In this document: positions 146-40,270 of the stretch, piece after piece
Position numbering within the stretch: position 1 is the stretch's first letter
Layout: each line of letters opens with the position of its first letter
Origin: Clostridiales bacterium
GTDB taxonomy: Bacteria; Bacillota; Clostridia; Saccharofermentanales; Saccharofermentanaceae
NCBI GenBank assembly: GCA_017513085.1
Contig: JAFWDK010000024.1
Span: forward strand, 1-64,000
Reading direction: 5' to 3'
Length of the DNA: 64,000 nucleotides
Made by a program: the position numbers and the translations under genes
Notes under the pieces: generated by a model
What the model saw: only the letters and a program-made list of their open reading frames with translations
Databases searched by the model: none
Told to the model about the DNA's origin: nothing

Positions 146-207
146 TTAGTTAACTAAACTGCCCATAGACATAAATGGGGGACAATACGAGGGGGATATT
201 GATAAAT

Positions 208-3200: not shown

Positions 3201-3414
3201 GTTTGTTGGATTAAAGACGAGTAATGAAGAGTATGTTCGCCGTCTTTATAAGACCTTTATGGGTAGAACACCTGACTCGAGTGAAGTTGCTTTCTGGGCC
3301 GGTAAGATCAAAGAAGGAAAGATGACTCGAAGAGAGGTTCTTGCCAGCTTTGGTTCCAGCACTGAATTTACGCAGATCTGCGCGAAGTATGGTATTTCGC
3401 GAGGCAGCATCTAA
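208..3414 (+). CDS. Secreted surface protein: BspA-type LRR, Pro/Thr stalk, two PASTA-like domains, C-terminal DUF4214-like repeats
   Basis: Signal peptide ending VQA; [13 protein letters not shown]-type LRR_5 repeats; [12 protein letters not shown] and [17 protein letters not shown] starts; [17 protein letters not shown] repeats. ATG 208 chosen because of the GGGGGA RBS upstream (ORF track starts at 175). Confidence 0.8.
937..1878 (+). repeat. Intragenic tandem repeat: 6 x 48 nt, 9 x 30 nt, 8 x 48 nt
   Basis: Units encode [16 protein letters not shown] (16 aa) and [10 protein letters not shown] (10 aa) with mostly synonymous variation; blocks start at 937, 1225 and 1495. Confidence 0.95.
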
Positions 3415-9441: not shown

Positions 9442-9464
9442 TCGCTCGATTATGATTAAATGAA

Positions 9465-9498
9465 GAGAAGCCGTGTCTTCGGACGCGGCTTCTTTTTT
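9465..9498 (+). terminator. Intrinsic terminator
   Basis: agaagccgtgtc-ttcg-gacgcggcttct plus T tract. Confidence 0.9.
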
Positions 9499-9571
9499 GT
9501 AGTTATTACGAATATGCTATAATCGTTCTGTCGATTTCCTATATCGAACTTAGTTTAGAAAGGTGAGCTAC

Positions 9572-10090
9572 ATGAGTATTACTGCAATCGTTGCTGTGGA
9601 TGAAAACTGGGGAATTGGATATAAAGGTGAACTGCTGGCAAGTCTTCCTGAGGACCAGAAATTGAATTTTAAAGTTAAAACTCTGGGACATCCGGTTATA
9701 TATGGAAGAAAGACATTAGAAACGTTCCCGAAAGGCAAGCTTTTGCCTGGCAGAGAAAACATAATCCTTACGCGGAATCCGGATTTTTCTTATGAGGGTG
9801 CCACGATCATGCACTCAGTTACGGAAGTGGTGGAATATGCGGAGAAGCAACCGGATGAAACTTTTTTTATCATTGGCGGAGCACAGATCTATGAGCAGTT
9901 CCTGCCTTATTGTGACACTTGTGTCGTAACCAGGATCAAAAAGAGTTATCCGGCTGATGCGTTTTTCCCGAATCTTGATATGATCAATGCATGGGAATTG
10001 TTTTCACGTGAGCCGGAAGTTCGATCGATTAAGGGCGTAAGTTTTGAAATCTGGACGTATAGACGAGTTTCAGAATTTTTTGGGGTGTGA
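9572..10090 (+). CDS. folA: Dihydrofolate reductase
   Basis: IVAVDENWGIG, GRKT, LPGRENIILTR, IIGGAQIY, DAFFP. Confidence 0.95.
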   Translation: MSITAIVAVDENWGIGYKGELLASLPEDQKLNFKVKTLGHPVIYGRKTLETFPKGKLLPGRENIILTRNPDFSYEGATIMHSVTEVVEYAEKQPDETFFIIGGAQIYEQFLPYCDTCVVTRIKKSYPADAFFPNLDMINAWELFSREPEVRSIKGVSFEIWTYRRVSEFFGV

Positions 10091-10166
10091 AAACTGCACA
10101 AAAGAGATGTGTGCAGGATGCACAACGGTTTTCTTGTTTGTCTGTGCAACATCTACAATTCTTGCA

Positions 10167-10195
10167 TTGACGCCTTTTTTTCGTAAAGATATAAT
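10167..10195 (+). promoter_or_regulatory. Sigma-A promoter
   Basis: TTGACG-17-TATAAT upstream of the small HPr-like gene. Confidence 0.75.
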
Positions 10196-10273
10196 GAAAC
10201 CGCAAAGACAGGAAAGCTTTGCAGAGGAAAAAAGAAAGAAAGAAAACTCATTTAGATTAAGGAGGTAGTCATC

Positions 10274-10540
10274 ATGAAGGCTTTTAACATGAGCAATGTA
10301 GATGTTCACCAGTTTATGCAGGCACTTGATTCTTGTTCCGGCGATGTAATGCTTATTACAGATGAAGGTGACAAGTTCAATCTCAAGAGCAAGCTCAGCC
10401 AGATCACAGGTTTGATGAAGCTGATCGAAGGTGGTAAGCTTGTTGATGCTAAGATTTATTGCTCTAACGTTGAAGACGAGGCTCTGCTTTTCAGACTGAA
10501 TCTTTTCGGAACAGTAGAAGAAGTCGATCATATCGGCTAA
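10274..10540 (+). CDS. Small HPr-fold-like protein of unknown function
   Basis: 88 aa, strong AAGGAGGT RBS; FNLKS resembles the HPr Ser46 motif; no His15 motif. Confidence 0.6.
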   Translation: MKAFNMSNVDVHQFMQALDSCSGDVMLITDEGDKFNLKSKLSQITGLMKLIEGGKLVDAKIYCSNVEDEALLFRLNLFGTVEEVDHIG

Positions 10541-10594
10541 TCCTACGAGCAAAAGATCTTAAGAGCGGAAACATCCGCTTGGTATGATTTTTCT

Positions 10595-10622
10595 AAAAGA
10601 GGGCTGATTGCCCTCTTTTTTC
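10595..10622 (+). terminator. Intrinsic terminator
   Basis: aaaagagggc-tgatt-gccctctttt plus T tract. Confidence 0.85.
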
Positions 10623-10696
10623 TTAATATTTTCTTAGTAATTTATCTGACGTACAAGTATATAATAAGATAAGCGTATGAGGAGGATAGGGTATTC

Positions 10697-11722
10697 ATGA
10701 TCAAAGAGTTTAAAGTCAATCTGTTTCGCATTTTGCGAACTAAATCTTTTTACGTTGTATTGATTATTCTCCTTGCGCTTAGTGTATTTAGTGCTTTTGT
10801 AGTCTTTTTTGTTTCTGATGATCCACTTGATGTTTTTTATTCTGATGATGATTCTGAGACGTTAACGACAGATGAATTAGTTCAAGTACTTCAAGAAGCC
10901 GAGCAAAAGTATATGATTAATTCCCAAGCTCAAAGTTTGATTGCAGAATCCCAGTTGCCGGATACAGGAGATCCGGCAATGGATAGCCGGATCATGGAAG
11001 CGATGGAATCTATATCGAACAATGAAAAGTCTGAGGAGTCTGCAGATGCATATAATGAGTCTTTTCAGTCGTCTTTTATGGAGGGCTTTCAACTTGGTCT
11101 ATCCAGTATAAGGCCATTGAATAATACTTTAGATGTACTGAATATGTCCTTAGGCAACGAGTTGCATCTTTTCCTTTTTCAGATAATTGTCGCTTTGTAT
11201 ATTGGCGCAGAATATAAGTCCAGGTTTCATATCAATCGTTTTTCTTTGAACACTACGCGAGCAACGATCCTTTTGGGCGAATGGCTTACGTTGCAGATCC
11301 TTTTCGTGTTGATGATGGTTTTAGAGTATTTCACTACCTTAGGTTTGTCTGTTTTGTTCTGTTCGTCGTTTGAATGGACTAGAGTATCTGAATCGTTGAT
11401 TCGTTTCGGGTATTATACTCTCATAGTTATGGCTTATACTTCTTTTACTTTTATGATTGCGGTTTTACGACGCGGGAGTGCGATGGCAATCGTTTTTTCC
11501 AGCCTCTTTACATTTGATGTATTGCATCTTGTTTTTGCCGTAGCTTCGATACTGAACTCTAAAATAATGAATTTGTCGCCTTCGTTTTTATTGAGTACGG
11601 TTTCTACAAATAATACGCTCACTATTCAAACAAGTTTTGCCGTTATCGCGATTCTTATAGGGTATATTGCTGTTTTCGTCGGTTCTACTTTGTCAGTATC
11701 ATCTTATCGTGATGCGTACTAA
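10697..11722 (+). CDS. ABC-2 type transporter permease-like membrane protein
   Basis: One TM, large acidic loop, then about five TMs; N-terminal LFRILRTKSFY and IGAEYKS motifs. Confidence 0.7.
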   Translation: MIKEFKVNLFRILRTKSFYVVLIILLALSVFSAFVVFFVSDDPLDVFYSDDDSETLTTDELVQVLQEAEQKYMINSQAQSLIAESQLPDTGDPAMDSRIMEAMESISNNEKSEESADAYNESFQSSFMEGFQLGLSSIRPLNNTLDVLNMSLGNELHLFLFQIIVALYIGAEYKSRFHINRFSLNTTRATILLGEWLTLQILFVLMMVLEYFTTLGLSVLFCSSFEWTRVSESLIRFGYYTLIVMAYTSFTFMIAVLRRGSAMAIVFSSLFTFDVLHLVFAVASILNSKIMNLSPSFLLSTVSTNNTLTIQTSFAVIAILIGYIAVFVGSTLSVSSYRDAY

Positions 11723-12616: not shown

Positions 12617-15600
12617 ATGAGCAATACATTGAACATGGGACTGGACATTGGTTCCACGACTATAAAGATCGTTTTAACGGAAGGCGAGAAGATCGTTTAC
12701 CAGGAATATCGAAGACACCATTCTGATATTGCCGGCGAGCTTTTAAGTGCTTTTGAAGAAGTAAACAAGAAGTTCCCGGATTTGAGAGCCAGAGTGCAGA
12801 TTACGGGTTCCGGCGGACTTTCCGTTGCGAAATGGCTTGGCCTTGATTTTGTTCAGGAAGTTATTGCTGAAACTGTTGCGATTTCGAAATATCATCCCGA
12901 AACGGACGTCATCATCGAATTAGGAGGAGAAGACGCGAAGATCACATATCTGCACCCTGTTCCGGAGCAGAGAATGAATGGTACATGCGCTGGCGGAACG
13001 GGTGCTTTTATCGATCAGATGGCTACACTTCTGCGTACTGATGCAGACGGCCTGAATGAGATGGCGAAGTCCTATAAGACGCTTTATACGATTGCTTCAC
13101 GCTGCGGCGTTTTTGCCAAGAGCGATCTTCAGCCTTTGATCAATGAAGGGGCTGCCAAGGAAGACCTGGCGGCATCCATTTTCCAGGCAGTTGTCAATCA
13201 GACGATTGCCGGACTTGCGTGTGGACGTCCGATCCGTGGACATATCGCATTCCTTGGTGGTCCGTTGTTCTTTAATTCTGAGCTTCGTAAGGCGTTTGAG
13301 AGAACGCTGGAAGAGCAGGTCAAATCATTCTGGATCCCTGATAATGCGCAGATCTATGTTGCTCTGGGAGCTGCACTGGGAGCTAAGGGCAAAGAAGTTC
13401 TGCTTTCCGATCTGATAGCTTCTTTTGCATCCAAGGAGGGTTTTGAACCGGATATCAAGCGTATCGCGCCGTTGTTTGCCGATGCCCGTGAAAAAGAACT
13501 GTTTGATGAGCGTCATCAGCGTGCCACTCTGGATCTGTATCAGTTGGCTAAGCAGAAGGGTCCTTGCTATCTGGGTATTGATGCCGGTAGTACGACCACT
13601 AAAGCTGTTCTGATCAACGAAGAGGGACAGATGGTCTACACCTATTATGCAAGTAACCAGGGCAATCCGGTAAAGAGTGCCGTAAATATCGTTAAGCAAC
13701 TTTACGAGCAGATGCCGCCGGAAACTTATATCGCGAACAGTTGTGTTACAGGATATGGTGAAAACATAATCCGTGCTGCATTGGGCGTTGATCTGGGTGA
13801 AATTGAAACAATGGCACATTTCCAGTCGGCAAAGTATTTCTGCCCGGATGTCGATTTTATTATTGATATCGGCGGACAGGATATGAAGTGCATGAAGATC
13901 CGAAATGGTGTAATTGACTCCATTATGCTGAATGAGGCCTGTTCTTCAGGCTGCGGATCCTTTATCCAGACTTTTGCTGAGAATCTGAATATGGATGCCC
14001 ATACTTTCTCTTTGGAAGCTTTGTCCGCTAAAAATCCGGTCGATCTTGGAACCAGATGTACCGTATTCATGAATTCCAAAGTCAAGCAGGCACAGAAAGA
14101 GGGAGCGACCGTTGGTGATATTTCCGCGGGACTTTCGTATTCTGTCGTCCGTAATGCACTTTATAAAGTTATCAAGATCCGTGATACGCAGGAGCTTGGA
14201 AAGAAGATCGTCGTGCAGGGAGGTACTTTCCTGAATGATGCGATCCTTCGTTGTTTTGAGCTGATTTCCGGACGAGAAGTCATTAGACCGAATGTAGCCG
14301 GCCTGATGGGTGCTTTTGGCGCTGCAATCATTGCTAAAAAACGTATGCCGAAGGATCAGAAAGTATCAGGTCTTCTTGGTCTGGAAGAACTCAATCGTTT
14401 TGATATGACGACAGAGATGACGACATGCCCGCTTTGCACGAATCATTGTAAATTGACGATCTCGACTTTCTCGAACGGAGAACGCTTTATTTCAGGTAAC
14501 CGATGTGAGCGTGGTGAGGGGAAGGAAAAGGCGAAAGATACTTTACCGAATCTGATTGCGTATAAATATGCCAGAACGTTCCGTTATAAACCTCTTGCTA
14601 AGGATAAGGCTCCGCGTGGAGAGATCGGTATACCGAGAGCTCTGAATATGTATGAGAATTACCCGTTCTGGTTTACTGTGCTGACAGAACTCGGTTTTTC
14701 GGTCGTTATTTCACCAAGGTCAAATCATGAATTGTTTGAGAAGGGTATGGATTCTATTCCTTCTGAGAGCGTTTGCTACCCGGCCAAGCTTGTTCATGGT
14801 CATATTGAGAGCCTGATCGAGAAGGGGATCAAGACTATATTCTATCCTGATATTCCGTATGAACGTCACGAGAATAAGAATTCCGGAAATCACTTTAATT
14901 GTCCGATCGTGGCGTCTTATCCGGAAGTGATCCGTAATAATCTGGAAAATATCCAGGATAAGGGAATTAAGTATCTGAATCCATTCCTGCCTTTGGATAA
15001 CGATGATGCTCTTGCAGAGCAGCTGGCGATCGCTTTTGCTGAGTTTGGTGTGACGAAAGCCGAGGCTGAGAAGGCGGTTGCGGCAGGAAACAAAGAGTAT
15101 GATGATTACAAAGCTGATATCAGAAGAAAAGGTCAGGAAGTCATCGAAGATCTGGAGCGCACCGGACAGAAGGGTATAGTGCTTTCGGGGCGTCCGTATC
15201 ACACAGATCCGGAGATCCATCATGGTATCCCGGAGATGATCAATTCACTTGGCCTGGCCGTTCTTAGCGAGGATAGTGTGGCTGTTCCGGGAAGACTGCA
15301 GCGTCCGATCCGTGTTGTAGACCAGTGGATGTATCATACACGTCTTTATGAAGCTGCCGCTTATGTTGCGACTAACGATAATCTGGAATTGGTGCAGCTT
15401 ACTTCTTTTGGTTGCGGACTTGATGCCGTAACGTCCGACCAGGTTCAGGAGATCCTGGAATCTCAAGGAAAGCTATATACTTTGCTGAAAATCGATGAAG
15501 TAAGCAATCTGGGTGCTGCGCGTATCCGTATGCGTTCTTTGAAGGTCGCTATGGATGAACGTGAGGCGGCTAGAAAAGACGGCACTATGCCGAAAAGAGA

Positions 15601-17011
15601 GAGAAAGTCGTATACGATCAAGCGTGTTCCGTTTACAGAAGAACACAAGAAGCGTCATACGATCCTGGCACCACAGATGGCTCCGATCGAGTTTGAGTTT
15701 GTTGAGGCAGTATTCCACCATCACGGATATAAGTTGAAAGTTCTCAAGCAGGCGACTCAGGCAGATATCGAGTGTGGATTGCGCTTTGTCAACAATGACG
15801 CATGTTTCCCGACGGTCATCGTTGTTGGTCAGATGGTCAATGCAATCTTATCCGGCGAAGTGGACCGTGATAATACTACGGTGCTTATTACTCAGACGGG
15901 TGGCGGTTGCCGTGCGACGAACTATGTTGCTTTCTTGAGAAAAGCACTTCGCGAAGCCGGATATGGCGATATCCCGGTCATTGCTCTTTCTGTGCAGCAG
16001 TTTGAGAAGAATCCTGGATTTAAACCGACCTTGCCGTTTATTAACAGCGCACTCCGTGCCGTTTGCTATGGAGATATGCTCCAGACGTTGCTTTTGCGTG
16101 TGCGTCCGTATGAGAAGGTCAAAGGATCGGCCAATGCTTTGTATCAGTTCTGGAACCGTTGCGGCAAACTTTTCTTTAATCCAAAGGAGAAGTTTGAGGA
16201 TATAACGACCGAGTATATCATGGCGGAAGCTTGCAAGAACGTGCCTTTGACCGAGGAAGAAAAAAAAGCGGTCGAAGATCTGCTCCGCGAACTTCATTGC
16301 GCAAAGATCGGTCGTCCGTCATCTTACAGGCGTTTGATCGATGCGACCATTGATACTTTTGACAAATTCCCGATGCTGGATATTCCTAGAAAGCCACGCG
16401 TCGGTCTGGTCGGTGAGATCCTCGTTAAATTCCAGCCTGATGCCAATAACCATGCTGTAGACGTTGTTGAACAGGAAGGCTGTGAAGCAGTTGTTCCGGG
16501 TCTTTTGGATTTCTTCCTGTATTGTGCGATGGGTCCTGTCTGGGCGGCGGATCACCTGGGAAGAAGTAAGAAGTCTGCATGGCTTTCAAACCGTGGAATC
16601 GATCTTCTCCAATCTTATCGTCGGCATATCGTCAAAAAGATGGCCGAGACAGGGAAGTTCCAGCTTCCGCAGAGTATCCGTCATATGGCAAAGAAAGCGG
16701 AGAGCGTGCTATCCTGTGGAAATGACAATGGTGAAGGCTGGTTCCTGACCGCTGAAATGATTGAACTGATCGAGAGCGGAGTACCGAATATTATTTGTGC
16801 TCAGCCGTTTGCATGCCTTCCAAACCATGTTACCGGAAAGGGTATGATCAAAGAGTTGAGAAGACAATATCCGGAGTCTAACATTATTCCGATCGACTAC
16901 GATCCGGGCGCCAGCGAAGCCAACCAGCTGAACCGTATCAAACTTATGGTCAGCACAGCGCATTATCGGGAAGAGATGAAGAGACAGAAAGAAGAGAATA
17001 ACAATAAGTGA
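12617..17011 (+). CDS. Fused acyl-CoA dehydratase activase / DUF2229 Fe-S protein, probable single-gene plasmalogen synthase (PlsA-PlsR type)
   Basis: Two BadF/BcrD-type ATPase domains ([16 protein letters not shown]; CAGGTG, CSSGCG), CxxCxNxC, SESVCYP, SFGCG, then [25 protein letters not shown]. Confidence 0.75.
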
Positions 17012-28932: not shown

Positions 28933-30264
28933 ATGTTCGAGCCGGAAGTGACGATCATTGGCGCCGGACTGGCCGGAGCAGAAGCGGCATGGCAGGTGGC
29001 CAGACATGGTGTGCGTGTCCGACTTTATGAAATGAAACCGGTACGCAAGAGTCCGGCACATCATAGTGACAAATTTGCCGAACTTGTCTGTAGTAATTCT
29101 CTTCGATCCAATCAGCTGGAAAACGGAGTGGGACTTCTTAAGGAAGAGTTGCGCATCCTTGGATCATTGATCATGGAATCTGCTGACAAGGCGCAAGTGC
29201 CTGCCGGTGGTGCGCTTGCAGTCGATAGAGAAGAATTCTCCGGATATATAACGGAAAGAATCAAGAACCATCCTTTAATCGAAGTTGTTTATGACGAGAT
29301 CAAATCGATACCTGATGAGGGTGTTGTGATCATCGCAACGGGACCACTTACAGATGGTGAGCTTTATGACAGTATCATGCAAAAGATCGGTCAGAAAGAT
29401 ATGCATTTTTTTGATGCAGCTGCGCCTATTGTAATGGAATCAACGATAGATCGCTCGATCTGCTTTGCCATGTCCCGATATGGCAAAGGAGGAGATGATT
29501 ATCTTAACTGCCCGATGAATGAGGAAGAATACCGCGCATTTTACGAAGCGTTGATTTCTGCCGAACTTGCAGATGTGAAGGGCTTTGATAAAGAAACAGT
29601 TTTCGAAGGATGTATGCCTATCGAGACCATGGCGAAACGTGGATATGATACGATGCGTTTCGGTCCCTTAAAACCAGTCGGTCTGATCGATCCGCGTACA
29701 GGCAAAGAACCTTACGCATGTGTACAGCTCCGTCAGGATGACCGCATGGCATCGATTTATAATATTGTCGGATTCCAGACACGTCTGAAATTCCCTGAAC
29801 AAAAACGAGTGTTCGGAATGATTCCCGGTCTTCAGAATGCTGAGTTTACACGTATGGGCGTTATGCATAGGAATACGTATATCGAATCTCCGAAACTCCT
29901 TTCTGCCACTTATCAGCTGCGGGAAGATCCCCGGATCTTTTTTGCGGGACAGATTACCGGAGTGGAAGGGTACATTGAATCTACAGCGTCAGGCTATCTT
30001 TCCGGCTATTATGCAGTTACTATGGTCCGCCCGGACATGGAACAGGTGACTTTCAGTCCTGAAACCATGATCGGAGCCATGGCAGCTTATGTATCTGATC
30101 CGAATGTGAAGCATTTTGTTCCTATGAATGCTAATTTCGGTTTAGTTGCTCCACTTGGTTATAAAGTTAAAGGCAAGAAGAAAGAGAAGAACCTTGCCTA
30201 TGCGGAGCGTGCCATCGCTGAAGTTTGTAAGAATAAAGAGAAGATGGAGTTGTTTTGGAAATGA
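28933..30264 (+). CDS. trmFO: Folate-dependent tRNA m5U54 methyltransferase
   Basis: GAGLAG, AELVCSNS, FFDAAAP, GVMHRNTY; follows topA. Confidence 0.96.
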   Translation: MFEPEVTIIGAGLAGAEAAWQVARHGVRVRLYEMKPVRKSPAHHSDKFAELVCSNSLRSNQLENGVGLLKEELRILGSLIMESADKAQVPAGGALAVDREEFSGYITERIKNHPLIEVVYDEIKSIPDEGVVIIATGPLTDGELYDSIMQKIGQKDMHFFDAAAPIVMESTIDRSICFAMSRYGKGGDDYLNCPMNEEEYRAFYEALISAELADVKGFDKETVFEGCMPIETMAKRGYDTMRFGPLKPVGLIDPRTGKEPYACVQLRQDDRMASIYNIVGFQTRLKFPEQKRVFGMIPGLQNAEFTRMGVMHRNTYIESPKLLSATYQLREDPRIFFAGQITGVEGYIESTASGYLSGYYAVTMVRPDMEQVTFSPETMIGAMAAYVSDPNVKHFVPMNANFGLVAPLGYKVKGKKKEKNLAYAERAIAEVCKNKEKMELFWK

Positions 30265-31130
30265 AACTTGCTCGGAATATCCAATATGAAAGTGAAAAAG
30301 TATCGTATAAGAGCTTCCTGAAAGCATATGGCCATAACTGGGCTAAAGTCTGTATCAGCAACGCAGTTCTGCTGTTGTGTAACCTTCTTTCCATGGTAAT
30401 CGGTCTTGCTATCGTTATGTTCATCTTTCCCTTTATTTTTCCGTCTTTCCTTCCGGATTCGTTGAAAGACTTTCTTTTGACAAATGGTTTTGTATTAGAG
30501 GCGGAAGCCACAAATGAAGCTGTGCAAAGTATCTACTATCTGCTTTGCCTGATCCTGGATATGATGATGACAGGCCTGATGTTTGTAATAAACGGTCCTG
30601 TGCAGTGCGGTATCGTTTACTATTTGCGTAATCTTCTTGAAGGAGATGCCAGACTGAGAGATGATTTCAAAAAAGGTATGAAGTTAAACTGGAAAAAGTC
30701 TTTGGGGGCTTGTATCCTCTCCATTCTGGTCACTGTTGTCCTGATTTTTAATATCGGGTACTACAGAAATGTTGGCATGGGGTCAATTACTCCTTTTGTA
30801 CAGGGTTTTTTCACATGGTGCCTTGTTTTTTGGGGCTGTATGCAGCTTTATGTTTATCCGCTTATTGCTTGTACGGATCTTTCTCTCAAAGATGTGTACA
30901 GAAATGCTGCTTTGTTTTCCGTGAAGAGTTTCTTTGCTACACTAGGCATGTTCTTCCTGCAATGCCTGCTTTTCCTTGTTATACCATTCGTGCTGATCTT
31001 TTTTGCGGGGCAGATCGGATATGGCGTGGCGGTACTCTTATATCTGCTCTTTTCTTTTGGGTTTATGACATTTCTTTCGACATATCACTCCTGGAAACTA
31101 ATCAATAACTACGTAAAAACAGAAAAATAA
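30261..31130 (+). CDS. YesL/DUF624-like integral membrane protein
   Basis: Multiple TMs, DFKKGMKLNWKKS and YVYPL motifs; ATGA overlap with trmFO. Confidence 0.65.
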   Translation: MKLARNIQYESEKVSYKSFLKAYGHNWAKVCISNAVLLLCNLLSMVIGLAIVMFIFPFIFPSFLPDSLKDFLLTNGFVLEAEATNEAVQSIYYLLCLILDMMMTGLMFVINGPVQCGIVYYLRNLLEGDARLRDDFKKGMKLNWKKSLGACILSILVTVVLIFNIGYYRNVGMGSITPFVQGFFTWCLVFWGCMQLYVYPLIACTDLSLKDVYRNAALFSVKSFFATLGMFFLQCLLFLVIPFVLIFFAGQIGYGVAVLLYLLFSFGFMTFLSTYHSWKLINNYVKTEK

Positions 31131-31219
31131 GTATTCCTTATGCATAGCAAGTGATATGTACTTTTTAATGTTGATGGTCTAGAATATATAGGTATTCTTA
31201 CTTTAATAGGAGCGTGCTT

Positions 31220-32683
31220 ATGATACAGTGTGAAAGAGGTCATTTCTTTGATGAGAATCGTTATTCCGGTTGCCCTTATTGCAATCAGATCAATAATCAG
31301 CAAAGGAGTGTGATCCCACCGATTGCTCCGGCAATGGAAATTCCCAAGCCTTCTTGTGGAAAGACAGTTGCTATTGAAGGAATGGATACAACTCCATCTG
31401 TAGGCAAGACCGTTGCCATAGATAACTTTGAAGAGAATACTCCACATATCGGAAAAACAGTTGCCATCACAGAAGATGCAACATATGCTCCACCGGCTGC
31501 TCCGTCATCCGTAGAACAGGTATCTTCGCCTTCGGTTGCAGCAGCTCCTGTTGCACCAGTAGCAGCTGCTGCAGTGGCTGCTCCTTTTTCAGAGCCAACA
31601 CCGTTTACAGCACCGACGTCTTCGGAAAATACAGCTGTTTCCAATGGTTCCCTGTTTAATGACGGGGCTCAGGAACAGCCCGGACCGGCTTCAGAACAAA
31701 CGGATCCGGAGTCCATTATGAGACCTTATCAGGTTACCGGTCTTGGTGTTAAGGAGAATCCTCAGCCGATTCCGGTCAGTGAACCGACTTATGAGCGTCC
31801 GTACGCTGTTTCCGGCCTTGGTGTCAAAGAGAATCCGACTCCGACGTCTGCTGTAGAGGTCGGTGCAACATTCCCGGTTCCGCAACAGGGAGAAGCTCCT
31901 ATGTCTGCTGAAGCCAGTGCTTTTGCTTCTGTGGGATTCCCGGGAGGTCCGAATCCTTTTATGGCTCCCGGCATGATTCCGGGTATGCCTGTAGGCGCAC
32001 CGCCTGCACCTGTCCCGACTACTCCAAATGTTGAAGTTCCTGCGCCAATAATTGAACCTGTTTCTTTGAATGGTGAAAATTCTGCTTCAGTAGTGGAAGA
32101 ACCTTCTCCTGAAGTTTCGGAAGCAGCTTCGGTAATAGAAGAAACTGTTCCGGTAGTGGAAGAAATCGTACATTCTGAACCGGAGACGGTTCCTGCAGTT
32201 GCAGAGACGGTTCCTGTTGAACAGCCTGTCGTTGCTCCGCAGGCCGCGCCTATCGAAACTCCTGTTGCTTCTCCGTTCATTATGCCTGCTCCTGTGGATC
32301 CGCATGCCACGGTGGCAATGACGGAATCGGATATGGATTATCTTCCGAGAGTACATGCCCGCGCGTTCCTCGTTTGTACAGATGGTCCTATGACCGGAGC
32401 ATCTTTTGTATTCCAGGAGAATAAGGCTATTATCGGACGTCAGAAGAATTATGAGATTTCATTGTTCCGCGATCCGTCGGTATCCCGTAGTCCGCATGCC
32501 ATTATCAAGTATGACAAGGATAGTCTAACGTATACCGTTGCTCCGGGTGATGCTGAAAAGAGAGTATCTGTAAATGGAACATTCATTACTTCCGAGCAGT
32601 CTTTAGGTATTTACGATATTTTGGGTATCGGACAATCCAGACTCTTATTTATTCCTGTTTGCAGTGAGAAGTTTGCATGGTAA
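31220..32683 (+). CDS. FHA-domain protein with N-terminal Zn-ribbon-like motif and long Pro/Ala/Glu-rich linker
   Basis: CERGH...CPYC at the N-terminus; IIGR...SVSRSPH...VNG FHA at the C-terminus; AGGAG RBS. Confidence 0.85.
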   Translation: MIQCERGHFFDENRYSGCPYCNQINNQQRSVIPPIAPAMEIPKPSCGKTVAIEGMDTTPSVGKTVAIDNFEENTPHIGKTVAITEDATYAPPAAPSSVEQVSSPSVAAAPVAPVAAAAVAAPFSEPTPFTAPTSSENTAVSNGSLFNDGAQEQPGPASEQTDPESIMRPYQVTGLGVKENPQPIPVSEPTYERPYAVSGLGVKENPTPTSAVEVGATFPVPQQGEAPMSAEASAFASVGFPGGPNPFMAPGMIPGMPVGAPPAPVPTTPNVEVPAPIIEPVSLNGENSASVVEEPSPEVSEAASVIEETVPVVEEIVHSEPETVPAVAETVPVEQPVVAPQAAPIETPVASPFIMPAPVDPHATVAMTESDMDYLPRVHARAFLVCTDGPMTGASFVFQENKAIIGRQKNYEISLFRDPSVSRSPHAIIKYDKDSLTYTVAPGDAEKRVSVNGTFITSEQSLGIYDILGIGQSRLLFIPVCSEKFAW

Positions 32684-33612
32684 GTTTTCTCTTAGCAGTC
32701 AATTCGGAAAAATTGAAGTCATTCCTGAATAAGTGGGGATTTCTTTGTGGTATTGCACTTGCGCTTATCGTGATAGGTGTAATTGTAGCTGTTTGGCTGA
32801 TTTTGAAAAAAAATACGCAAGAAGAGCCATCTTCTGATACAAATCCGAATGGGTCGCTTGGTTCGATGGATAATGGTTTTTTTAGAATTGAAGTCGGAAA
32901 CTGCCAAGGTTTGGGCGAAAGAGATGAGCAACAGGATGCTTTCGGCTTTTCTCCCAATGCCAAATGGAAAGATAAAGGATTCCTGGCTGTGCTTTGTGAT
33001 GGAATGGGCGGTCTTGATTCTGGAGCTGTGATTTCCAACAAACTGGTATCAGATGTAATCAAAGAGTTTCCTTATTCGTTTGAAGAATTGAAGGATGGTT
33101 GGATCATTGATTCTCTTTCTGCAGATATTTATTCGAATTATTACGGTAGAGGTGGTACAACGCTGATCATTACTTTCCTTAAGGGTGATAAGCTTTGGTT
33201 TGCTTCGGTCGGAGACAGTGATCTTCTTCTTTATCGTGAAGGCCGGATCTATGCTATGAATCAACGTCAGGAGTATGGTAATAATTTGCTCATGAAAGTC
33301 GTTGATGATGCACTTTCCATGGAGCAGGTGATAGGTAACAGTGATGCTCCTGCGCTTACTGAATATATGGGCGCACAGCATGCTGAAGCTGATTATTCCA
33401 TCCGCCCTTGGCAAGTTAAAGAAGGAGATGTCTATCTTCTTTGTTCAGATGGTGTTTCGGATACATTGACTTTTGACGAGATCCGTGAGGCAATGTCTCA
33501 TGATGCTTCCGAGTGTGCGGAACTTCTCGAGAAAGGTATAATAGAGAAGAATAAGCGGTTTCAAGATAATTACACGGCTATCGTGTTTTCAATAAAAAGG
33601 GTGGAGGTATAA
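32677..33612 (+). CDS. Membrane-anchored PP2C-family Ser/Thr phosphatase
   Basis: N-terminal TM; R..QQD, CDGMGG, GTT, VGDS, CSDG, DN motifs. Confidence 0.9.
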   Translation: MVSFLLAVNSEKLKSFLNKWGFLCGIALALIVIGVIVAVWLILKKNTQEEPSSDTNPNGSLGSMDNGFFRIEVGNCQGLGERDEQQDAFGFSPNAKWKDKGFLAVLCDGMGGLDSGAVISNKLVSDVIKEFPYSFEELKDGWIIDSLSADIYSNYYGRGGTTLIITFLKGDKLWFASVGDSDLLLYREGRIYAMNQRQEYGNNLLMKVVDDALSMEQVIGNSDAPALTEYMGAQHAEADYSIRPWQVKEGDVYLLCSDGVSDTLTFDEIREAMSHDASECAELLEKGIIEKNKRFQDNYTAIVFSIKRVEV

Positions 33613-33615
33613 AAA

Positions 33616-34944
33616 ATGAAGTGGGTTAAAAGAATTGTTATGATTGTGCTGGCTTTGGGTATTGTTGGTTCAGGTATCCTGGCGTTCCTGTCTTACAATA
33701 ATTGGAAAGATGCAGATAAAGAAGTTACTCGTCTTTCTCTTTTGCAGGATGAGAATGGTGTATCCATTCCTACTACGGAAAATCAGAAATCTGTCGTATT
33801 GGTTGCCTGCATGAATAATCAAGGTTACGGTGGAGAAGGAACCGGATATGCTGTAGGTGAATATGGTGAAGATGTAAAATACATTGTTACCAATGGTCAC
33901 GTAGTTTCTTTTATGGAAGAGGATGATGCCTTTCAGGCTTACGTGTTTTTCGGAAAGAACGACTATCAGATCGCAGAAGTCGTATTTTACCAGTACGACA
34001 AAGATATGGATATGGCTATTCTGAAACTTCCAAAAGCAATCGATGAGCGTATTCCTGTAGCGATCCGTGATTCGGATGATGTAGACGTCGGTGACAAGTG
34101 TGTGGCTATAGGCTTCCCGGATAAGGCAAATAATCTCGATACGAATTTTACTCCTGATATTGCCAGTCAGACGGTTACCGCAGGTGTAATCGGAAAAGTA
34201 AAAGTTAATCCTGCCGGAAAGAATTATAAGTCTTTCCAACATGATGCGTTTATTACACATGGTAATTCCGGTGGACCTCTGTTTGATGAACATGGTTTCT
34301 TGATCGGTATGAATACAGAAGGCCGTGAGGATTCTGAAAACGTTAACTTCTCTATCATGAGTAACGAGATCACAAAAGTCCTGAAAAAGAATAAAATCAA
34401 ATTCATGACAGATGAGGATTATATTGAGGAAGCCGCTGCAGACAAGAAAGCCAGCAAGGGCAAAAAGTCCGAACTCAGTAAGAAAGAAGATGAGGCCCAG
34501 GCAGAAAAGACCAAGTTTTTCGTATTCCTGGGCGTAGGTGCTGCTTGTGCGGTTGCACTGCTCGTTCTTGCAATCCTTGGAAACAAAAAGGTCGTTATGG
34601 TCGGTGAGCAGGATGATGGCAAGAAGTCCTATCTTACCTGCACTAAGGGTATATATGCCGGACAGAAATTCGAATTTACCGATCACACCATGACGATCGG
34701 GCGTGATCGCAATACATGTACTTTCGTTTTCCCGGAAAACACACCGGGTATCAGCTCGAACCACTGTTCCGTATACTTTGATCCAAGAACGAAGAGTTTT
34801 GTGTTGACGGATAATGGCTCAACATATGGCACATATCTGTCTGACGGAAGAAAACTTACCAAAGGAGTTCCGGAACAGTTGACTCCGGGTTCGGTATTCT
34901 CTTTGGCAGATAAAACCAACGAATTCCTTGTAGAAAGAGAGTAA
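33616..34944 (+). CDS. Trypsin-like serine protease with second TM and C-terminal FHA domain
   Basis: TNGHVV (His), DMAILK (Asp), HGNSGGP (Ser); TM FFVFLGVGAACAVALLVLAIL; IGRD...SSNH...GSTYGT FHA. Confidence 0.9.
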   Translation: MKWVKRIVMIVLALGIVGSGILAFLSYNNWKDADKEVTRLSLLQDENGVSIPTTENQKSVVLVACMNNQGYGGEGTGYAVGEYGEDVKYIVTNGHVVSFMEEDDAFQAYVFFGKNDYQIAEVVFYQYDKDMDMAILKLPKAIDERIPVAIRDSDDVDVGDKCVAIGFPDKANNLDTNFTPDIASQTVTAGVIGKVKVNPAGKNYKSFQHDAFITHGNSGGPLFDEHGFLIGMNTEGREDSENVNFSIMSNEITKVLKKNKIKFMTDEDYIEEAAADKKASKGKKSELSKKEDEAQAEKTKFFVFLGVGAACAVALLVLAILGNKKVVMVGEQDDGKKSYLTCTKGIYAGQKFEFTDHTMTIGRDRNTCTFVFPENTPGISSNHCSVYFDPRTKSFVLTDNGSTYGTYLSDGRKLTKGVPEQLTPGSVFSLADKTNEFLVERE

Positions 34945-34945
34945 G

Positions 34946-35653
34946 ATGGATTTTTATTCATATACAAACAAAGGCGGACATGAACCGAATTGTGATTATC
35001 AGCAGGTCATCGAGCATGATAATAAAGTGCTGATGGTGGTCTGTGATGGTTTGAATGGTCTGCCTTCCGGAGATGAAGCGGCAAAGATCATCGGAGATAT
35101 CGCCATTGCGTCCCTGATTGAAGGCCAGGAGCCTTCCCAGGCTTGTGTTACCGCAAATGCGAAGTTTCGCGAGATGCAGTTTGATAATGTCAATCTCCGA
35201 CGTGCAGGCGCTACGATATGCGTAGTCCGTATTGCTGACGGAATCTGCAGCTGGGCGAATGTCGGGGATTCCCACATCTATCACTTTTCGGAGAGTTCTC
35301 TGGTACACCATTCGTGTGACGATACGTTTGCATATCAGATGTTTGTACGTGGAGAGTGTGACTATGAGGCACTTCGAGAGATCGAGAACCGTACCGGGAT
35401 GAATGTTTGTATTGGACAGAAAGATACTGTTGAGCCACATGTTGAAGAATTTCCGATAGCTGATTCGGATGGAATACTTGTATGTTCGGATGGCTTCTGG
35501 GAAAATGTATATGAAACGGAAATGACGATCGATTTCGTGAAATCTTTTAATGCTAAAGATTGGGCGAGAAAGATGCTTCTGCGTGCGATCCAACGTGGAC
35601 AATTTAAGGGTGATAATCTCACTCTGATTACATATATAAAGATGGCAGGTTGA
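34946..35653 (+). CDS. Soluble PP2C-family phosphatase
   Basis: NCD, CDGLNG, NVGDS, CSDGFW, DNLT motifs. Confidence 0.88.
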   Translation: MDFYSYTNKGGHEPNCDYQQVIEHDNKVLMVVCDGLNGLPSGDEAAKIIGDIAIASLIEGQEPSQACVTANAKFREMQFDNVNLRRAGATICVVRIADGICSWANVGDSHIYHFSESSLVHHSCDDTFAYQMFVRGECDYEALREIENRTGMNVCIGQKDTVEPHVEEFPIADSDGILVCSDGFWENVYETEMTIDFVKSFNAKDWARKMLLRAIQRGQFKGDNLTLITYIKMAG

Positions 35654-35657
35654 TAGA

Positions 35658-38081
35658 ATGGATACAAAAAATCTGTGTTTTGGTTGTTTTAATGCGCATA
35701 ACGGACAAGGTCCTTGTCCTCATTGTGGATTTGACCTTGCGACGGTAAAGCATCCTTTTGTTGCTCTTCCTATCGGCACGATCCTGAATGGCAGATACCT
35801 CACCGGACGTGTTCTTGGAGTGGGCGGCTTTGGTGTTACGTATCTTGCATTTGATATGACGTTGGAGATCTGTGTGGCGATCAAGGAATTCCTGCCTTCC
35901 GGAATCGCGCTTCGTGACTCTGACCGTTATACTATGACTGTGACAGCACCGGAAGAACAACCTAAATTTGATTCCGGCGCATCCAAGTTCCTTGAAGAAG
36001 CACGTCTTTTGGCAAAACTGCGAGATGTTCCGAATATTGTTACCGTGCAGGATTATTTCCGTGAAAACAATACCGCGTACTTTGTTATGGAATACGTAGA
36101 AGGTGTAGATCTTATGCGGTATACGCAGATGCGTGGTGGTAAGCTTTCTTACGAAGAGACTCTGCAATTGACTTTGCCGATTATTGATTCGTTGGCTCAT
36201 GTTCATGCGCACAATCTTTTGCACCGTGATATCAGTCCGGACAATATCGTCGTGACAAAAAACGGTAGCACACGTCTCCTTGATTTTGGCGCAGCTCGTC
36301 TGGCTATCGACACGGAGAAAAGTAAATCTATTATTTTAAAACATGGTTTTGCTCCGGAAGAACAGTACAGAAAACACGGAAATCAGGGCCCGTGGTCAGA
36401 TGAATATGCATTAGCTGCCACGATGTATCTGATTATGACCGGTGTGATGCCTCCGGATTCTATCGAGCGTGTGCATGATGACTCCCTGGTACCGCCGATC
36501 CAGCTCGGTGTGCAGATCCCGCAGCATGCAAACGATGCTTTGATGAAAGCACTGGCTGTCAGTGCTTCTGAGCGTTTCCCGGATATGAGTTCTTTTTCCG
36601 AAGCTTTGACAGGAAAGAAAGCGGTTGCTCCGGTCTCTTATGCAACAACAGGAGGAAACTACGGAACAGGTTTCGGAAGCACGGATTTGCCTACGGCGTC
36701 TTCGGCTTTGGAAGGCAATATGGTAGAGGGTAAGACTGTTGCTATGCCACAGGAGACAGAGGCTGTTACTAATCCTGCGCAAGCTGTTGCCCAGGCTCAG
36801 GCAGCTTCGCAACAAATGCCACAGAAAGTGATTTCTCCGTCGATCCTGAATCCGGATCAGAATAATGGACAGATCGCCCCGCCTTCTACTTTTACTCAGA
36901 CGCCAAAGAAGAAGAGTATCTGGAAACGGCCGGTAACTTATATCCTTGCGGCGTGTATCGCGCTGGTGGGTGCGGGTGTTCCTACCGGGATCTATTTGTA
37001 TCAGAATGGATATTTCGGCGAAGCCGAGGAATCTTCTACACGAAGAACGAAGAAAACCACTACGGAAGCTTCGGAAACAGAAGAGACGGTTCCGCCTGAG
37101 TCTTCGGAATATGCAGATCCTGCTGTGCTGGAAGATGATAATAAGAAGATCTATACGGATTCCGTCAGAGGATTCAGTATTTCGGCTCCGAAGAATTACT
37201 CTTTTGAGAATAATGATGGGATCTATGTGCTGACTCGGACTGATTCTCAATGCTTCGTCTATACTGATATGCTTTCTCATTATGGAGATTTGCGAATCAA
37301 GTCTCTTGATGATTTTGTTGCGGTAAGCAATTCTTTTGTTTCGGATTATCTCGATAATAAACTCGGACTTCAGGATTATACGTTAAAGACAGGTGAATAC
37401 CAGTTTGTTTACAGAGCGAGCAACGCGTATAGTGTCGTATGTGACGCCAATGCTTATTCAAATGGAAAACGTGTGGACGTAACTTTTGTAGCGACCGAGT
37501 TGAAAGAGAAAGAAGCGGTCCTCTTGAATTGCGCCGTGATGCCTTTAGATGAAAAGGGCATGTATTCCAGCGATGACTGGACACAACTTCAGGAAATACT
37601 GGATACGTTAATCGAGGATTCGACCAAAACGAGTTCTTATGAAATGTTTGAACATGAAAACAAGCCCAAGTTCCATTTCCTTTATAAGAAGTCGGATGTT
37701 GCGTCGATCAGTACCGAGGAGATAGCTAATTCTGTGCAGTCTACCAACCTTGTGTTTAATGGTACAGATCCTGAGAAAAATGTGATTCGTGTGGTAGCCA
37801 TGGGTAAGCAGGGTTCGATCTCAACTGCATGTAAGACAGCTGAACAAGCAATAGGATTCTCTGTCGGTGGCTATACGGCAGTTACACCGATCGTTCGTAC
37901 GAGTTCGGATATTCGTGTCAGAAACTATGCTGTACAAAAAGACGGTGAGAACCTCAATTGTACAGTCTGTGTCATCAAGATCGGTGGTCAGTACTATTCC
38001 GTTATTGCTGTCAGCGATGATGATTCTCTGGAAAAGATCGCATTGAACTTTACTTTGGTCGTTATGTCATTGTCCACATGA
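35658..38081 (+). CDS. Hanks-type Ser/Thr receptor kinase: Zn ribbon, kinase, TM, extracellular domain
   Basis: CFGC...CPHC; LGVGGFGVTY, VAIKE, HRDISPDN, DFG, APE; TM ILAACIALVGAGVPTGIYL. Confidence 0.93.
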   Translation: MDTKNLCFGCFNAHNGQGPCPHCGFDLATVKHPFVALPIGTILNGRYLTGRVLGVGGFGVTYLAFDMTLEICVAIKEFLPSGIALRDSDRYTMTVTAPEEQPKFDSGASKFLEEARLLAKLRDVPNIVTVQDYFRENNTAYFVMEYVEGVDLMRYTQMRGGKLSYEETLQLTLPIIDSLAHVHAHNLLHRDISPDNIVVTKNGSTRLLDFGAARLAIDTEKSKSIILKHGFAPEEQYRKHGNQGPWSDEYALAATMYLIMTGVMPPDSIERVHDDSLVPPIQLGVQIPQHANDALMKALAVSASERFPDMSSFSEALTGKKAVAPVSYATTGGNYGTGFGSTDLPTASSALEGNMVEGKTVAMPQETEAVTNPAQAVAQAQAASQQMPQKVISPSILNPDQNNGQIAPPSTFTQTPKKKSIWKRPVTYILAACIALVGAGVPTGIYLYQNGYFGEAEESSTRRTKKTTTEASETEETVPPESSEYADPAVLEDDNKKIYTDSVRGFSISAPKNYSFENNDGIYVLTRTDSQCFVYTDMLSHYGDLRIKSLDDFVAVSNSFVSDYLDNKLGLQDYTLKTGEYQFVYRASNAYSVVCDANAYSNGKRVDVTFVATELKEKEAVLLNCAVMPLDEKGMYSSDDWTQLQEILDTLIEDSTKTSSYEMFEHENKPKFHFLYKKSDVASISTEEIANSVQSTNLVFNGTDPEKNVIRVVAMGKQGSISTACKTAEQAIGFSVGGYTAVTPIVRTSSDIRVRNYAVQKDGENLNCTVCVIKIGGQYYSVIAVSDDDSLEKIALNFTLVVMSLST

Positions 38082-40270
<2,189 letters not shown>

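Follow-up and report, generated by a model that had tools for sequence, protein, structure and literature searches.

A five-gene Clostridial locus encoding a PpkA-like kinase, two PP2C phosphatases and two FHA proteins, one of them fused to a protease

Hanks-type kinases, PP2C phosphatases and FHA proteins are well studied as signalling modules in Actinobacteria and in the control of type VI secretion; to our knowledge, almost nothing is known about such modules in the dominant anaerobic Clostridia of the gut and rumen. The present analysis concerns five adjacent genes, g1 to g5, in a 64,000-nucleotide stretch of DNA from a Clostridiales bacterium (GenBank assembly GCA_017513085.1, contig JAFWDK010000024.1, positions 1 to 64,000), hereafter referred to as the window. 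They encode a zinc-ribbon/FHA scaffold protein (g1), a PP2C phosphatase (g2), a fusion of protease, transmembrane (TM) segment and FHA domain (g3), a second PP2C phosphatase (g4) and a zinc-ribbon receptor kinase (g5). With belief and doubt about equally balanced, we propose that the five genes form one conserved module of Clostridia, namely a threonine phosphorylation pathway of the PpkA/PppA/Fha type that operates without a secretion system and is coupled through an FHA domain to an extracytoplasmic protease. The proposal builds on direct observations: how the genes are packed, which domains they encode, that catalytic and binding residues are intact, that the genes are conserved together, that a threonine motif is conserved and enriched, and that the kinase is PpkA-like in character.

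Among proteins of solved structure, PpkA (5hnv, E 2e-42, 149 bits) is the best relative of the g5 kinase domain, well ahead of kinases of the StkP/PASTA type (~1e-24, 91 bits), and one of the best relatives of g2 with known structure is PppA (2.3e-10). Because the g5 kinase is PpkA-like, the module is regarded as a relative of the type VI threonine phosphorylation pathway. As that pathway is described in PMC5995506, PpkA, PppA and an FHA protein together switch on type VI secretion: PpkA phosphorylates Thr-362 of Fha1 or Thr-14 of TssL, the phosphorylated partner then recruits an FHA domain and PppA reverses the modification. In Pseudomonas aeruginosa the pathway has been described to respond to membrane damage (PMC7817224, PMC13713981), and the type VI Fha protein has been described to form condensates (PMC13389060). 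The outline of a membrane kinase, an FHA scaffold with a disordered region, a PP2C eraser and docking dependent on phosphothreonine (pThr) is common to the described pathway (PMC5995506) and the proposed one, and PP2C and FHA proteins, two of each, are encoded with the module kinase. Unlike the type VI pathway, the module resides in a Gram-positive host with no type VI genes nearby, the FHA domain of g1 is C-terminal, a second FHA domain is fused to a transmembrane protease, two PP2C phosphatases are present instead of one eraser, and the kinase has an N-terminal zinc ribbon and an ectodomain that is not of the vWA type. PpkA of P. aeruginosa carries a periplasmic vWA domain.

The second close comparison is the actinobacterial fhaA-pknB locus, which, according to PMC6554272, groups the genes for an FHA scaffold, an FHA protein of the membrane, a PP2C that is likewise membrane-bound and a receptor kinase, as is the case here; the TM-FHA part of g3 also matches the FhaB/FipA model, at a score below the family cutoff. 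In contrast to that locus, the module is devoid of SEDS/PBP genes (rodA, pbpA) and of PASTA repeats, its FhaB-like protein bears a protease ectodomain, a second PP2C is added, and the NCBIfam scores of the module proteins are far below the family cutoffs. The Firmicute pair PrkC/PrpC (Stk1/Stp1) likewise has a Hanks kinase and a PP2C side by side, but the module lacks PASTA repeats, lies in another neighbourhood and has a kinase nearer to PpkA than to StkP.

Two further systems share part of this logic. In the Esr pathway of Schaalia, as far as described in 10.64898/2026.09.08.750141, a surface sensor signals to a Ser/Thr kinase, which phosphorylates a threonine in the disordered region of a protein ending in an FHA domain, with a phosphatase alongside; the same description includes MoxR, vWA and transglutaminase components, a sensor with immunoglobulin repeats and a beta-propeller, and a transcriptional output. 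The window contains neither MoxR nor vWA genes and the coupled part is a protease, while a vWA-TM-FHA protein in a related Oscillibacter locus (below) is found without MoxR. The Deinococcus operon DRA0331-0334 combines vWA, Ser/Thr protein kinase (STPK), FHA and PP2C in push-pull control (10.64898/2026.01.23.701218) and thereby resembles the module as a kinase/FHA/PP2C operon; it differs, in the same description, by the absence of a protease, by fusion of FHA to PP2C and by a link to the DNA damage response. A theme of zinc-ribbon kinase, PP2C and vWA in actinobacteria (PMC7159879) is, as described there, tangential and not the present system.

No description of this gene composition was found in the open-access literature searched. 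The original prediction had stated that no characterised system of such composition was known; this holds for the composition itself but has to be qualified, since relatives exist in the form of the PpkA pathway, and modules of Hanks kinase, PP2C and FHA proteins as such are of an already known kind. Three features appear without a prior description that we could find in open-access text: the widespread protease-TM-FHA fusion, its fixed partnership with a zinc-ribbon kinase of PpkA-like type, a pair of old PP2C paralogs and a zinc-ribbon/FHA scaffold, and the array of T-V-A-[I/L/M] motifs.

Composition and recurrence of the locus

The five genes are all on the plus strand and are separated, in order, by -7, 3, 1 and 4 nucleotides, the start of g2 overlapping the stop of g1 by 7 nucleotides. 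Open reading frame (ORF) analysis thus agrees with the original prediction of five tightly packed co-oriented genes, arranged like an operon, and Pfam, NCBIfam and alignments identify the zinc-ribbon/FHA protein, the protease-TM-FHA fusion, the soluble PP2C and the zinc-ribbon kinase with TM segment and ectodomain that it had named. The writer, readers and erasers of a pThr circuit are all encoded, with their catalytic or binding motifs intact in the alignments, as had likewise been anticipated.

The g5 protein consists of a zinc ribbon, a Hanks kinase domain, a juxtamembrane linker, a TM segment and an ectodomain of ~360 amino acids (aa). The zinc-ribbon residues C7/C10/C20/C23 are invariant in 61/61 kinases, and so are the Gly loop, K76, HRD189-191, N196, DFG209-211 and APE in 61/61 relatives of g5. 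The search for g5 relatives found 3680 among the 7999 scored. Since five Lys or Arg residues precede the TM segment, the kinase domain is predicted to lie inside the cell. No PASTA domain was matched in g5 by Pfam, and the NCBIfam model NF033483 reached 145 bits against a cutoff of 450.

Related zinc-ribbon kinases are encoded outside such modules. On a chromid of Azospirillum brasilense (locus L082, 9001-9945) a zinc-ribbon kinase 44% identical to g5 residues 5-319 stops right behind its kinase domain, and no FHA or PP2C genes adjoin it; therefore the clade of PpkA-like zinc-ribbon kinases is much wider than the module. Zinc-ribbon kinases on Deinococcus plasmids are 36-40% identical to the zinc-ribbon and kinase part of g5 (tblastn). 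Both the chromid locus and the plasmid locus (L083) were rejected as representatives of the same system, FHA and PP2C neighbours being absent.

In g3 a short N-terminus is followed by a first TM segment, an HtrA-like protease, a charged stalk, a second TM segment and an FHA domain (Pfam Trypsin_2 4.5e-23, FHA 1.8e-12). The catalytic triad H95, D132 and S218 is invariant in 18/18 diverse relatives, as are G362-R363, S380 and H383 of the FHA domain; G401 is close to invariant (>=90%), and most rows of the alignment keep N400. The protease probably faces outward, because it lies between two TM segments behind a basic N-terminus, and the FHA domain would then be cytoplasmic. Among solved structures, the protease is best matched by HtrA1 of mycobacteria (1e-14) and by DegS (1e-10). 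Like HtrA, DegP and DegS, g3 has an S1C-type catalytic domain with an intact His-Asp-Ser triad, but instead of a PDZ domain, for which Pfam gave no match, it has a C-terminal TM segment and a cytoplasmic FHA domain, and the HtrA/Deg models of NCBIfam, with cutoffs of at least 400 bits, reach just 40-87 bits. Residues 332-417 match the FhaB/FipA model NF049868 (4.7e-8). The fusion is common: 2133 relatives were found at E<=0.001 among the 8000 candidates scored, and trypsin and FHA Pfam domains occur together in 119 of the 120 g3 homologs among the matches listed.

Pfam and NCBIfam assign both g2 and g4 to the PP2C phosphatases. The metal-binding motifs (I, II, VIII and XI; D87, D108-G, G-D180-S, D258-G and D297-N in g2 numbering) are invariant in all five PP2Cs compared, i.e., g2, g4 and three orthologs. 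The two paralogs are just 22% identical to each other, and the pair is therefore old. No hydrophobic segment is present in g4. The predicted TM anchor of g2 is found in this genome as a hydrophobic segment (residues 25-43); it is missing from the ortholog in the Oscillibacter locus, which qualifies this part of the original prediction.

The g1 protein combines an N-terminal zinc ribbon, a spacer of ~340 residues rich in Pro and Ala, and an FHA domain at the C-terminus. Its zinc-ribbon residues C4/H8/C18/C21 are invariant in 17/17 orthologs, and the pattern is retained in 143/147 distant representatives of a family that numbers 3253 representatives at E<=0.001, 1570 of them at E<=1e-10, by profile search. 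The C-terminal 127 aa, when excised, pass the Pfam FHA model (25.8 bits vs a cutoff of 20.7), and the G-R, S-R and N-G residues of the FHA fold are present and at least 90% conserved. Only OdhI and GarA were found as solved relatives of this domain (E 0.13-0.6; alignment to OdhI/GarA at E 0.13).

Counterparts of all five genes are found together in Candidatus Oscillibacter avistercoris (Oscillospiraceae; locus L004), each of them reciprocal to one window protein. The order there is a zinc-ribbon kinase with a leucine-rich repeat (LRR) ectodomain, zinc-ribbon/FHA protein, PP2C, protease-TM-FHA, second PP2C and a vWA-TM-FHA protein; the g1-g2-g3-g4 order is thus kept, while the kinase gene stands first, at the 5' end, and neighbouring genes overlap (-14, -4, -4 nucleotides). 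Identities are 33% for the FHA region of g1 (6e-25), 35% for g2 (1e-44), 33% for g3 (1e-58), 29% for g4 (5.5e-35) and 48% for the kinase domain of g5 (4e-98). The additional protein (7377-8957 of that locus), directly 3' of the second PP2C, consists of a signal peptide, vWA domain, TM segment and FHA domain; judged by its architecture, it supports a role of cytoplasmic FHA domains as couplers of surface domains to the kinase. A 786-aa ORF in the same locus (9030-11390) was set aside, as it looks like a wrong-frame read of GC-rich DNA and neither strand gave a Pfam match. A reduced set occurs in Lachnospira (locus L056), where a protease-TM-FHA protein, one PP2C and a kinase with a helical ectodomain are encoded side by side.

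These neighbourhoods were obtained from a scan of genome contigs with generic protease patterns, which returned 78 ordinary HtrA loci and the two fusion loci. Among 83 loci compared, PP2C and kinase genes stand beside the protease in the two fusion loci only; some kinase is encoded 5 kb or more away in five generic HtrA loci, and none of these gave a PP2C match. As an indirect measure of co-location, the longest-contig size listed for each protein cluster was compared and exact coincidences were counted. At least 13 of the 120 g3 clusters listed share this size exactly with one of the 120 g5 clusters listed, five of these contigs being just 7-9 kb; where contigs are long, coincidence indicates a shared contig and not adjacency, a limit that counts in the weighing below. 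Similarly, of the 72 g1 rows, at least 10 have a counterpart of equal contig size among the g3 rows and at least 8 among the g5 rows. The coincidences place parts of the module on the same contigs, often under 10 kb, in over a dozen further lineages, and among the named members are Neglectibacter timonensis (Oscillospiraceae), Christensenellales and Candidatus Pelethousia. Because the gene set recurs in other families, its assembly is more than chance, and the expectation that similar clusters exist in other Clostridia is borne out by the two foreign loci and the shared contigs.

This recurrence also bears on the alternatives that the five genes are unrelated neighbours or a regulatory locus of a secretion system, to which together we give hardly any credence. 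The PpkA-like kinase and the use of FHA/kinase/PP2C sets in type VI secretion speak for the latter, but we know of no type VI systems in Firmicutes, and secretion genes are absent from the 64-kb window and from ~6-10 kb around the module in the Oscillibacter and Lachnospira loci. Chance adjacency is excluded by the order and overlaps conserved across families. Since the flanking genes differ among the three loci and none of them is a secretion or wall-synthesis gene, the module is self-contained.

Threonine motifs and a proposed signalling route

FHA domains are readers of pThr whose selectivity is set by the residue at position +3, with pTxxM and pTxxV among the classes described in PMC5549992. 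Threonines in such a context are conserved in g1 and g5. T49, T64 and T80 of g1, each within a G-K-T-V-A-I motif, are spaced 15-16 residues apart and are invariant in 17/17 orthologs even though the adjoining spacer is partly unalignable; at least two TV.[ILM] motifs are present in 71/74 g1 homologs, with a mean of 3.5 compared with 0.27 in shuffled sequences. A fourth threonine, T364, precedes by 12 residues the invariant Pro at which the FHA domain of g1 opens. It is found in 53/55 sequences of the wider g1 family (~30% identity), with Val or Ile at +1 in 49/55 and a hydrophobic residue at +3 in 47/55. In g5, a TV.[ILM] motif occupies the juxtamembrane region of 34/34 full-length orthologs.

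Across 142 distant proteins of the g1 family, T..[ILMV] occurs in the spacers at 1.62x and [KR]T..[ILMV] at 5.6x the shuffled expectation. The controls in the same spacers are flat or depleted (S..[ILMV] 0.99x, [ILMV]..T 1.11x, T.[ILMV] 0.63x, T...[ILMV] 0.86x), which makes the bias specific both for Thr and for position +3. The KTVA[ILM] motif was found 0 times in the 15,101 residues encoded by 30 further window genes, and g2, g3 and g4 contain no motif of the T-V-A-[I/L/M] type. T..[ILMV] is present in the TM-FHA linker of only 19/116 protease-FHA relatives; with so few linker motifs, the protease looks like a reader only. The motif, Thr with a hydrophobic residue at +3, fits the expected FHA ligand, and these threonines may be phosphorylated and bound. 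The PpkA site in TssL (...LPpTVVEI...) has Val at +1, as the module motif does (PMC5995506).

Analogous motifs in other letters were observed in the Lachnospira locus, where the cytoplasmic linker of the protease contains G-E-T-S-V-L twice. Downstream of the kinase in this locus (13907-14566) a 219-aa protein is encoded that has an N-terminal TM segment and a disordered tail with E-T-S-V-L, E-T-S-I-L and G-T-A-V-L; it is a candidate substrate or scaffold that may take the place of g1.

From these features the following route can be proposed. The fast-evolving ectodomain of g5 would sense something extracellular and activate the kinase, which would phosphorylate its own juxtamembrane T360 and the four T-V-A-[I/M] motifs of g1. 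The resulting pThr sites with a hydrophobic +3 residue would serve as docking sites for the FHA domain of g1 and for the FHA tail of g3, and g1, by virtue of its own FHA domain, would act as a multivalent, possibly self-associating scaffold. Docking would recruit or cluster the outward-facing HtrA-like protease at the activated kinase and change its activity or location. The regulated output would thus be proteolysis on the outer side of the membrane; g2, membrane-proximal in this genome, and the soluble g4 would erase the marks and reset the system. We infer that the motifs are phosphorylated and bound by FHA domains, how the proteins lie in the membrane and how the protease is affected. If the proposal is right, this widespread module would show that a PpkA-type pathway can do without a secretion system and that pThr reading can be coupled to a protease outside the cell. 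The T-V-A-[I/L/M] array offers concrete residues to mutate, by which the role of receptor kinases without PASTA repeats in Firmicutes becomes testable.

Multivalent clustering through pThr and FHA domains is known from the Mycobacterium tuberculosis transporter Rv1747, and TIFA provides an example of pThr-FHA binding in trans between molecules. The conserved Thr shortly before the FHA domain of the g1 family (53/55) recalls OdhI and GarA, and by analogy suggests pThr-FHA self-binding of g1, either within one molecule (in cis, like OdhI/GarA) or between molecules (in trans, like TIFA). Unlike OdhI and GarA, to which its similarity is weak, g1 has a zinc ribbon, a spacer of 340 residues and three more Thr motifs, and no metabolic link is evident.

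A more specific form of inside-out control may be conceived, which we consider improbable: once the hypervariable receptor kinase has fired, each of the three evenly spaced pT-V-A-I sites of g1 would capture one FHA tail of g3 and so assemble an active protease trimer outside the membrane. A trimer is proposed because HtrA-type proteases work as trimers. In an extension to which we attach the same low expectation, the fourth motif and the FHA domain of g1 would chain scaffolds into larger membrane clusters. If true, the locus would represent a Gram-positive, secretion-independent offshoot of PpkA signalling that turns surface sensing into local proteolysis, with a formal resemblance to eukaryotic surveillance driven by receptor kinases.

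Several observations weigh against the proposed module and its signalling route, in addition to the limit of the contig measure given above. Beyond the full-length orthologs, the juxtamembrane motif of g5 is present in only 11/86 more distant kinases and absent from 75/86, and the Oscillibacter kinase is without it. The PpkA site of TssL has Glu and not a hydrophobic residue at +3 (PMC5995506). The FHA domain of g1 carries a one-residue insertion in the S-x-x-H loop, before the His, and full-length g1 is matched below threshold by the YscD-type model Yop-YscD_cpl alone (24.6 bits vs a cutoff of 33.2); because of the insertion and of this sub-cutoff best match, pThr binding by g1 may differ or be lost. 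The charges flanking the anchor of g2 (3 Lys/Arg on the N side vs 2 Lys/Arg and 3 Asp/Glu on the C side) would, if anything, place its PP2C domain outside the cell; this placement was set aside, since the bias is weak and the Oscillibacter ortholog has no anchor. In Lachnospira the kinase is a different one, non-zinc-ribbon and 28% identical, and g1 and the second PP2C are missing, so the conserved core may be just protease-FHA, PP2C and kinase. Actual gene neighbourhoods were seen in these two foreign loci only. A scan for promoters and terminators remained at chance level (promoters, 19 found vs 18.7 expected) and is uninformative.

Variable ectodomains and alternative roles

Conservation of g5 is sharply divided along its length. 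Among 13 near orthologs the kinase domain is on average 88% identical (84-96%) and the ectodomain 41%; among 68 more distant members the means are 62% and 14%, and in one relative (P0193) a kinase domain 81% identical to that of g5 is joined to an ectodomain of 10% identity. Several kinases with ~80% identity in the kinase domain and ~10% in the ectodomain were observed among P0193-P0210 and P0214, the last of which (1399 aa) has two kinase domains in tandem. The length of the ectodomain, 300-400 residues, is kept in 34/34 near orthologs and in 72/86 others, and LRR repeats replace it in the Oscillibacter kinase. Pfam gave no match to the g5 ectodomain at E<=10, a PDB sequence search returned no solved relative and hhalign detected no internal repeat. 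Atlas pointed to DcrB (0.92-0.94), PsbP (0.89-0.91) and also DUF4946, and PsbP_2 or PsbP models matched below threshold in 3/61 relatives of g5; a PsbP/DcrB-like ectodomain is to be taken as a lead only. The combination of a conserved kinase with a swappable ectodomain suggests, from comparison of sequences, that the module reads variable, perhaps biotic, surface cues.

A different reading of the locus, which we consider unlikely, is that it serves housekeeping control of growth or division as a Clostridial counterpart of the actinobacterial fhaA-fhaB-pstP-rodA-pbpA-pknA-pknB genes and tunes wall synthesis or division. The protease would then process wall or secreted proteins, or control their quality, and would not answer threats from outside. 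FhaA combines a small domain at the N-terminus, a long spacer and an FHA domain at the C-terminus, and g1 with its small N-terminal domain, long Pro/Ala-rich spacer and C-terminal FHA domain is built in the same way. The match of the TM-FHA part of g3 to FhaB/FipA (NF049868, 33 bits, below the cutoff of 125), the membrane-associated PP2C, the position among core genes and the very strong constraint on the kinase domain in near orthologs are in accord with such a function, and a pknB-fhaA cluster has been described as conserved in a subset of Firmicutes (PMC6554272). However, rodA, pbpA and other wall-synthesis genes occur in none of the three loci, PASTA repeats are absent and the kinase is nearer to PpkA than to those of the StkP type, and a sensor that recognises an invariant wall precursor would not usually have an ectodomain that is swapped or sharply diverged between close relatives.

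The original prediction had left undecided whether proteolysis is the input or the output of the circuit. As input or feedback, the FHA-tethered protease would cleave the ectodomain of g5 or an extracellular pro-ligand and thereby activate or shed the kinase, a possibility we regard as improbable. The protease and the sensor would be on the same face of the membrane and could be held together by the FHA domain, and the solved relatives of g3 include the site-1 protease DegS. Nevertheless, the ectodomains differ (an unknown fold here, LRR in Oscillibacter, helical in Lachnospira) while the protease is conserved, which disfavours a specific fit of protease and sensor, and a cleavage site is without evidence.

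Fast-evolving or swapped sensors on a conserved signalling core are as well a feature expected of a system for defence or conflict, directed at phages or at other bacteria, with the protease as its effector. PpkA-type kinases drive an antibacterial weapon in Gram-negative bacteria, and domain-level matches were obtained with PADLOC for g5 (PD-T4-6/mad6 kinases), g3 (RT-protease/LmuA) and g4 (PDC-M21C); related logic is also described for the Esr epibiont-sensing pathway (10.64898/2026.09.08.750141). We nonetheless hold this role to be quite improbable. The PADLOC 2.0 matches concern generic kinase, protease and PP2C models and include none for g1 and g2; mobile-element, toxin and immunity genes were found neither in the window nor in the Oscillibacter and Lachnospira loci; and the setting is core chromosomal. 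Moreover, no full-length relative of g3 was found on the plasmid or phage records searched: by tblastn, 0/435 matching records among 72,556 plasmid records and 0/12 among 50,697 phage records cover 80% of the protein, the matches being confined to the protease domain. The best plasmid match (Subdoligranulum, locus L081) proved to be an unrelated 794-aa protease amid housekeeping genes and was discarded.

Coordinates, genomic setting and further observations

The coordinates of the genes and their features are collected in Table 1. ATG 31220 was taken as the start of g1 because AGGAG lies 7 nucleotides 5' of it and an exactly matching protein of 487 aa is present in a public collection.

Table 1. 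Features of g1 to g5; nucleotide positions refer to the window, residue numbers to the respective protein.
Feature	Position	Strand	Basis
g1, scaffold protein, 487 aa	31220..32683	+	ORF; ATG 31220 chosen over GTG 31214
g1 zinc ribbon (C4, H8, C18, C21)	31220..31288	+	ortholog alignment
g1 three G-K-T-V-A-I motifs (T49, T64, T80), candidate phospho-acceptor/FHA-docking sites	31358..31468	+	alignment
g1 A-T-V-A-M motif (T364)	32306..32320	+	55-sequence alignment
g1 FHA domain	32345..32659	+	Pfam on excised C-terminus; alignment to OdhI/GarA
g2, PP2C phosphatase, 311 aa, N-terminal hydrophobic segment	32677..33612	+	ORF, Pfam, NCBIfam
g2 hydrophobic segment, residues 25-43	32749-32805	+	hydrophobicity
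g3, TM/HtrA-like S1 protease/TM/FHA fusion	33616..34944	+	ORF, Pfam, NCBIfam
g3 TM1	residues 7-25	+	hydrophobicity
g3 S1 protease, residues 75-258	33838-34389	+	Pfam, NCBIfam
g3 TM2, residues 303-321	34522-34578	+	hydrophobicity
g3 FHA, residues 344-430	34645-34905	+	Pfam
g4, soluble PP2C phosphatase, 235 aa	34946..35653	+	ORF, Pfam, NCBIfam
g5, receptor kinase, 807 aa	35658..38081	+	ORF, Pfam, NCBIfam
g5 zinc ribbon (C7/C10/C20/C23)	35676-35726	+	61-sequence alignment
g5 PpkA-like Hanks kinase domain	35802-36614	+	Pfam Pkinase 3e-30
g5 juxtamembrane G-K-T-V-A-M (T360), candidate autophosphorylation/FHA-docking site	36729..36746	+	motif conservation
g5 TM, residues 429-447	36942-36998	+	hydrophobicity
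g5 ectodomain, ~360 aa, without Pfam family	36999-38078	+	ORF

The remainder of the window consists of core housekeeping genes (thrS, polA, coaE, comM, dprA, topA, trmFO, tgt, queA, and further dapA, dapB, dnaG, metY, lysC, xseA, ispA, dxs and nadK), and no kinase, PP2C or FHA genes besides g1 to g5 are present in the 64 kb. The GC content of the cluster (0.43-0.46) is the same as that of the remaining window and its flanks are ordinary, so that there is no sign of the insertion between housekeeping blocks that the original prediction had assumed. Rfam gave no match over 30000-39500 and no tandem DNA repeats were called in the window.

Upstream, 89 nucleotides separate g1 from a gene (30255-31130) for a membrane protein of 291 aa with five segments, which overlaps the end of trmFO by 10 nucleotides and matches the MusI family weakly (30.7 bits vs a cutoff of 160); no counterpart was seen beside the module in the Oscillibacter or Lachnospira loci. 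Downstream, the stop of g5 on the plus strand and that of the convergent tgt gene on the minus strand abut without spacer (38079-38084), and no terminator-like hairpin was found between them.

Within the spacer of g1 (32140-32170, ~residues 308-317) the copy number of a unit of 7 residues, VEESAPI, differs by 0, 1 or 2 among strains at least 97% identical, giving g1 proteins of 487, 494 and 501 aa in which the conserved motifs are untouched; no DNA tandem repeat was called for it in the window copy. Further conserved short motifs of the spacer (31700-31960) are V-[TS]-G-L-G-V-K-E-N-P, present twice, G-A-T-F-P and A-F-A-x-x-G-F-P-G-G-P, and the C-terminal C-x-x-K-F-x-W (32660-32680) is retained in 143/147 distant family representatives. 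Elsewhere in the window, and unrelated to the module, are a 1079-aa ORF (175-3414) without an NCBIfam match at E<=1e-10 and a 1464-aa protein (12617-17011) with two stretches resembling acyl-CoA dehydratase activases.

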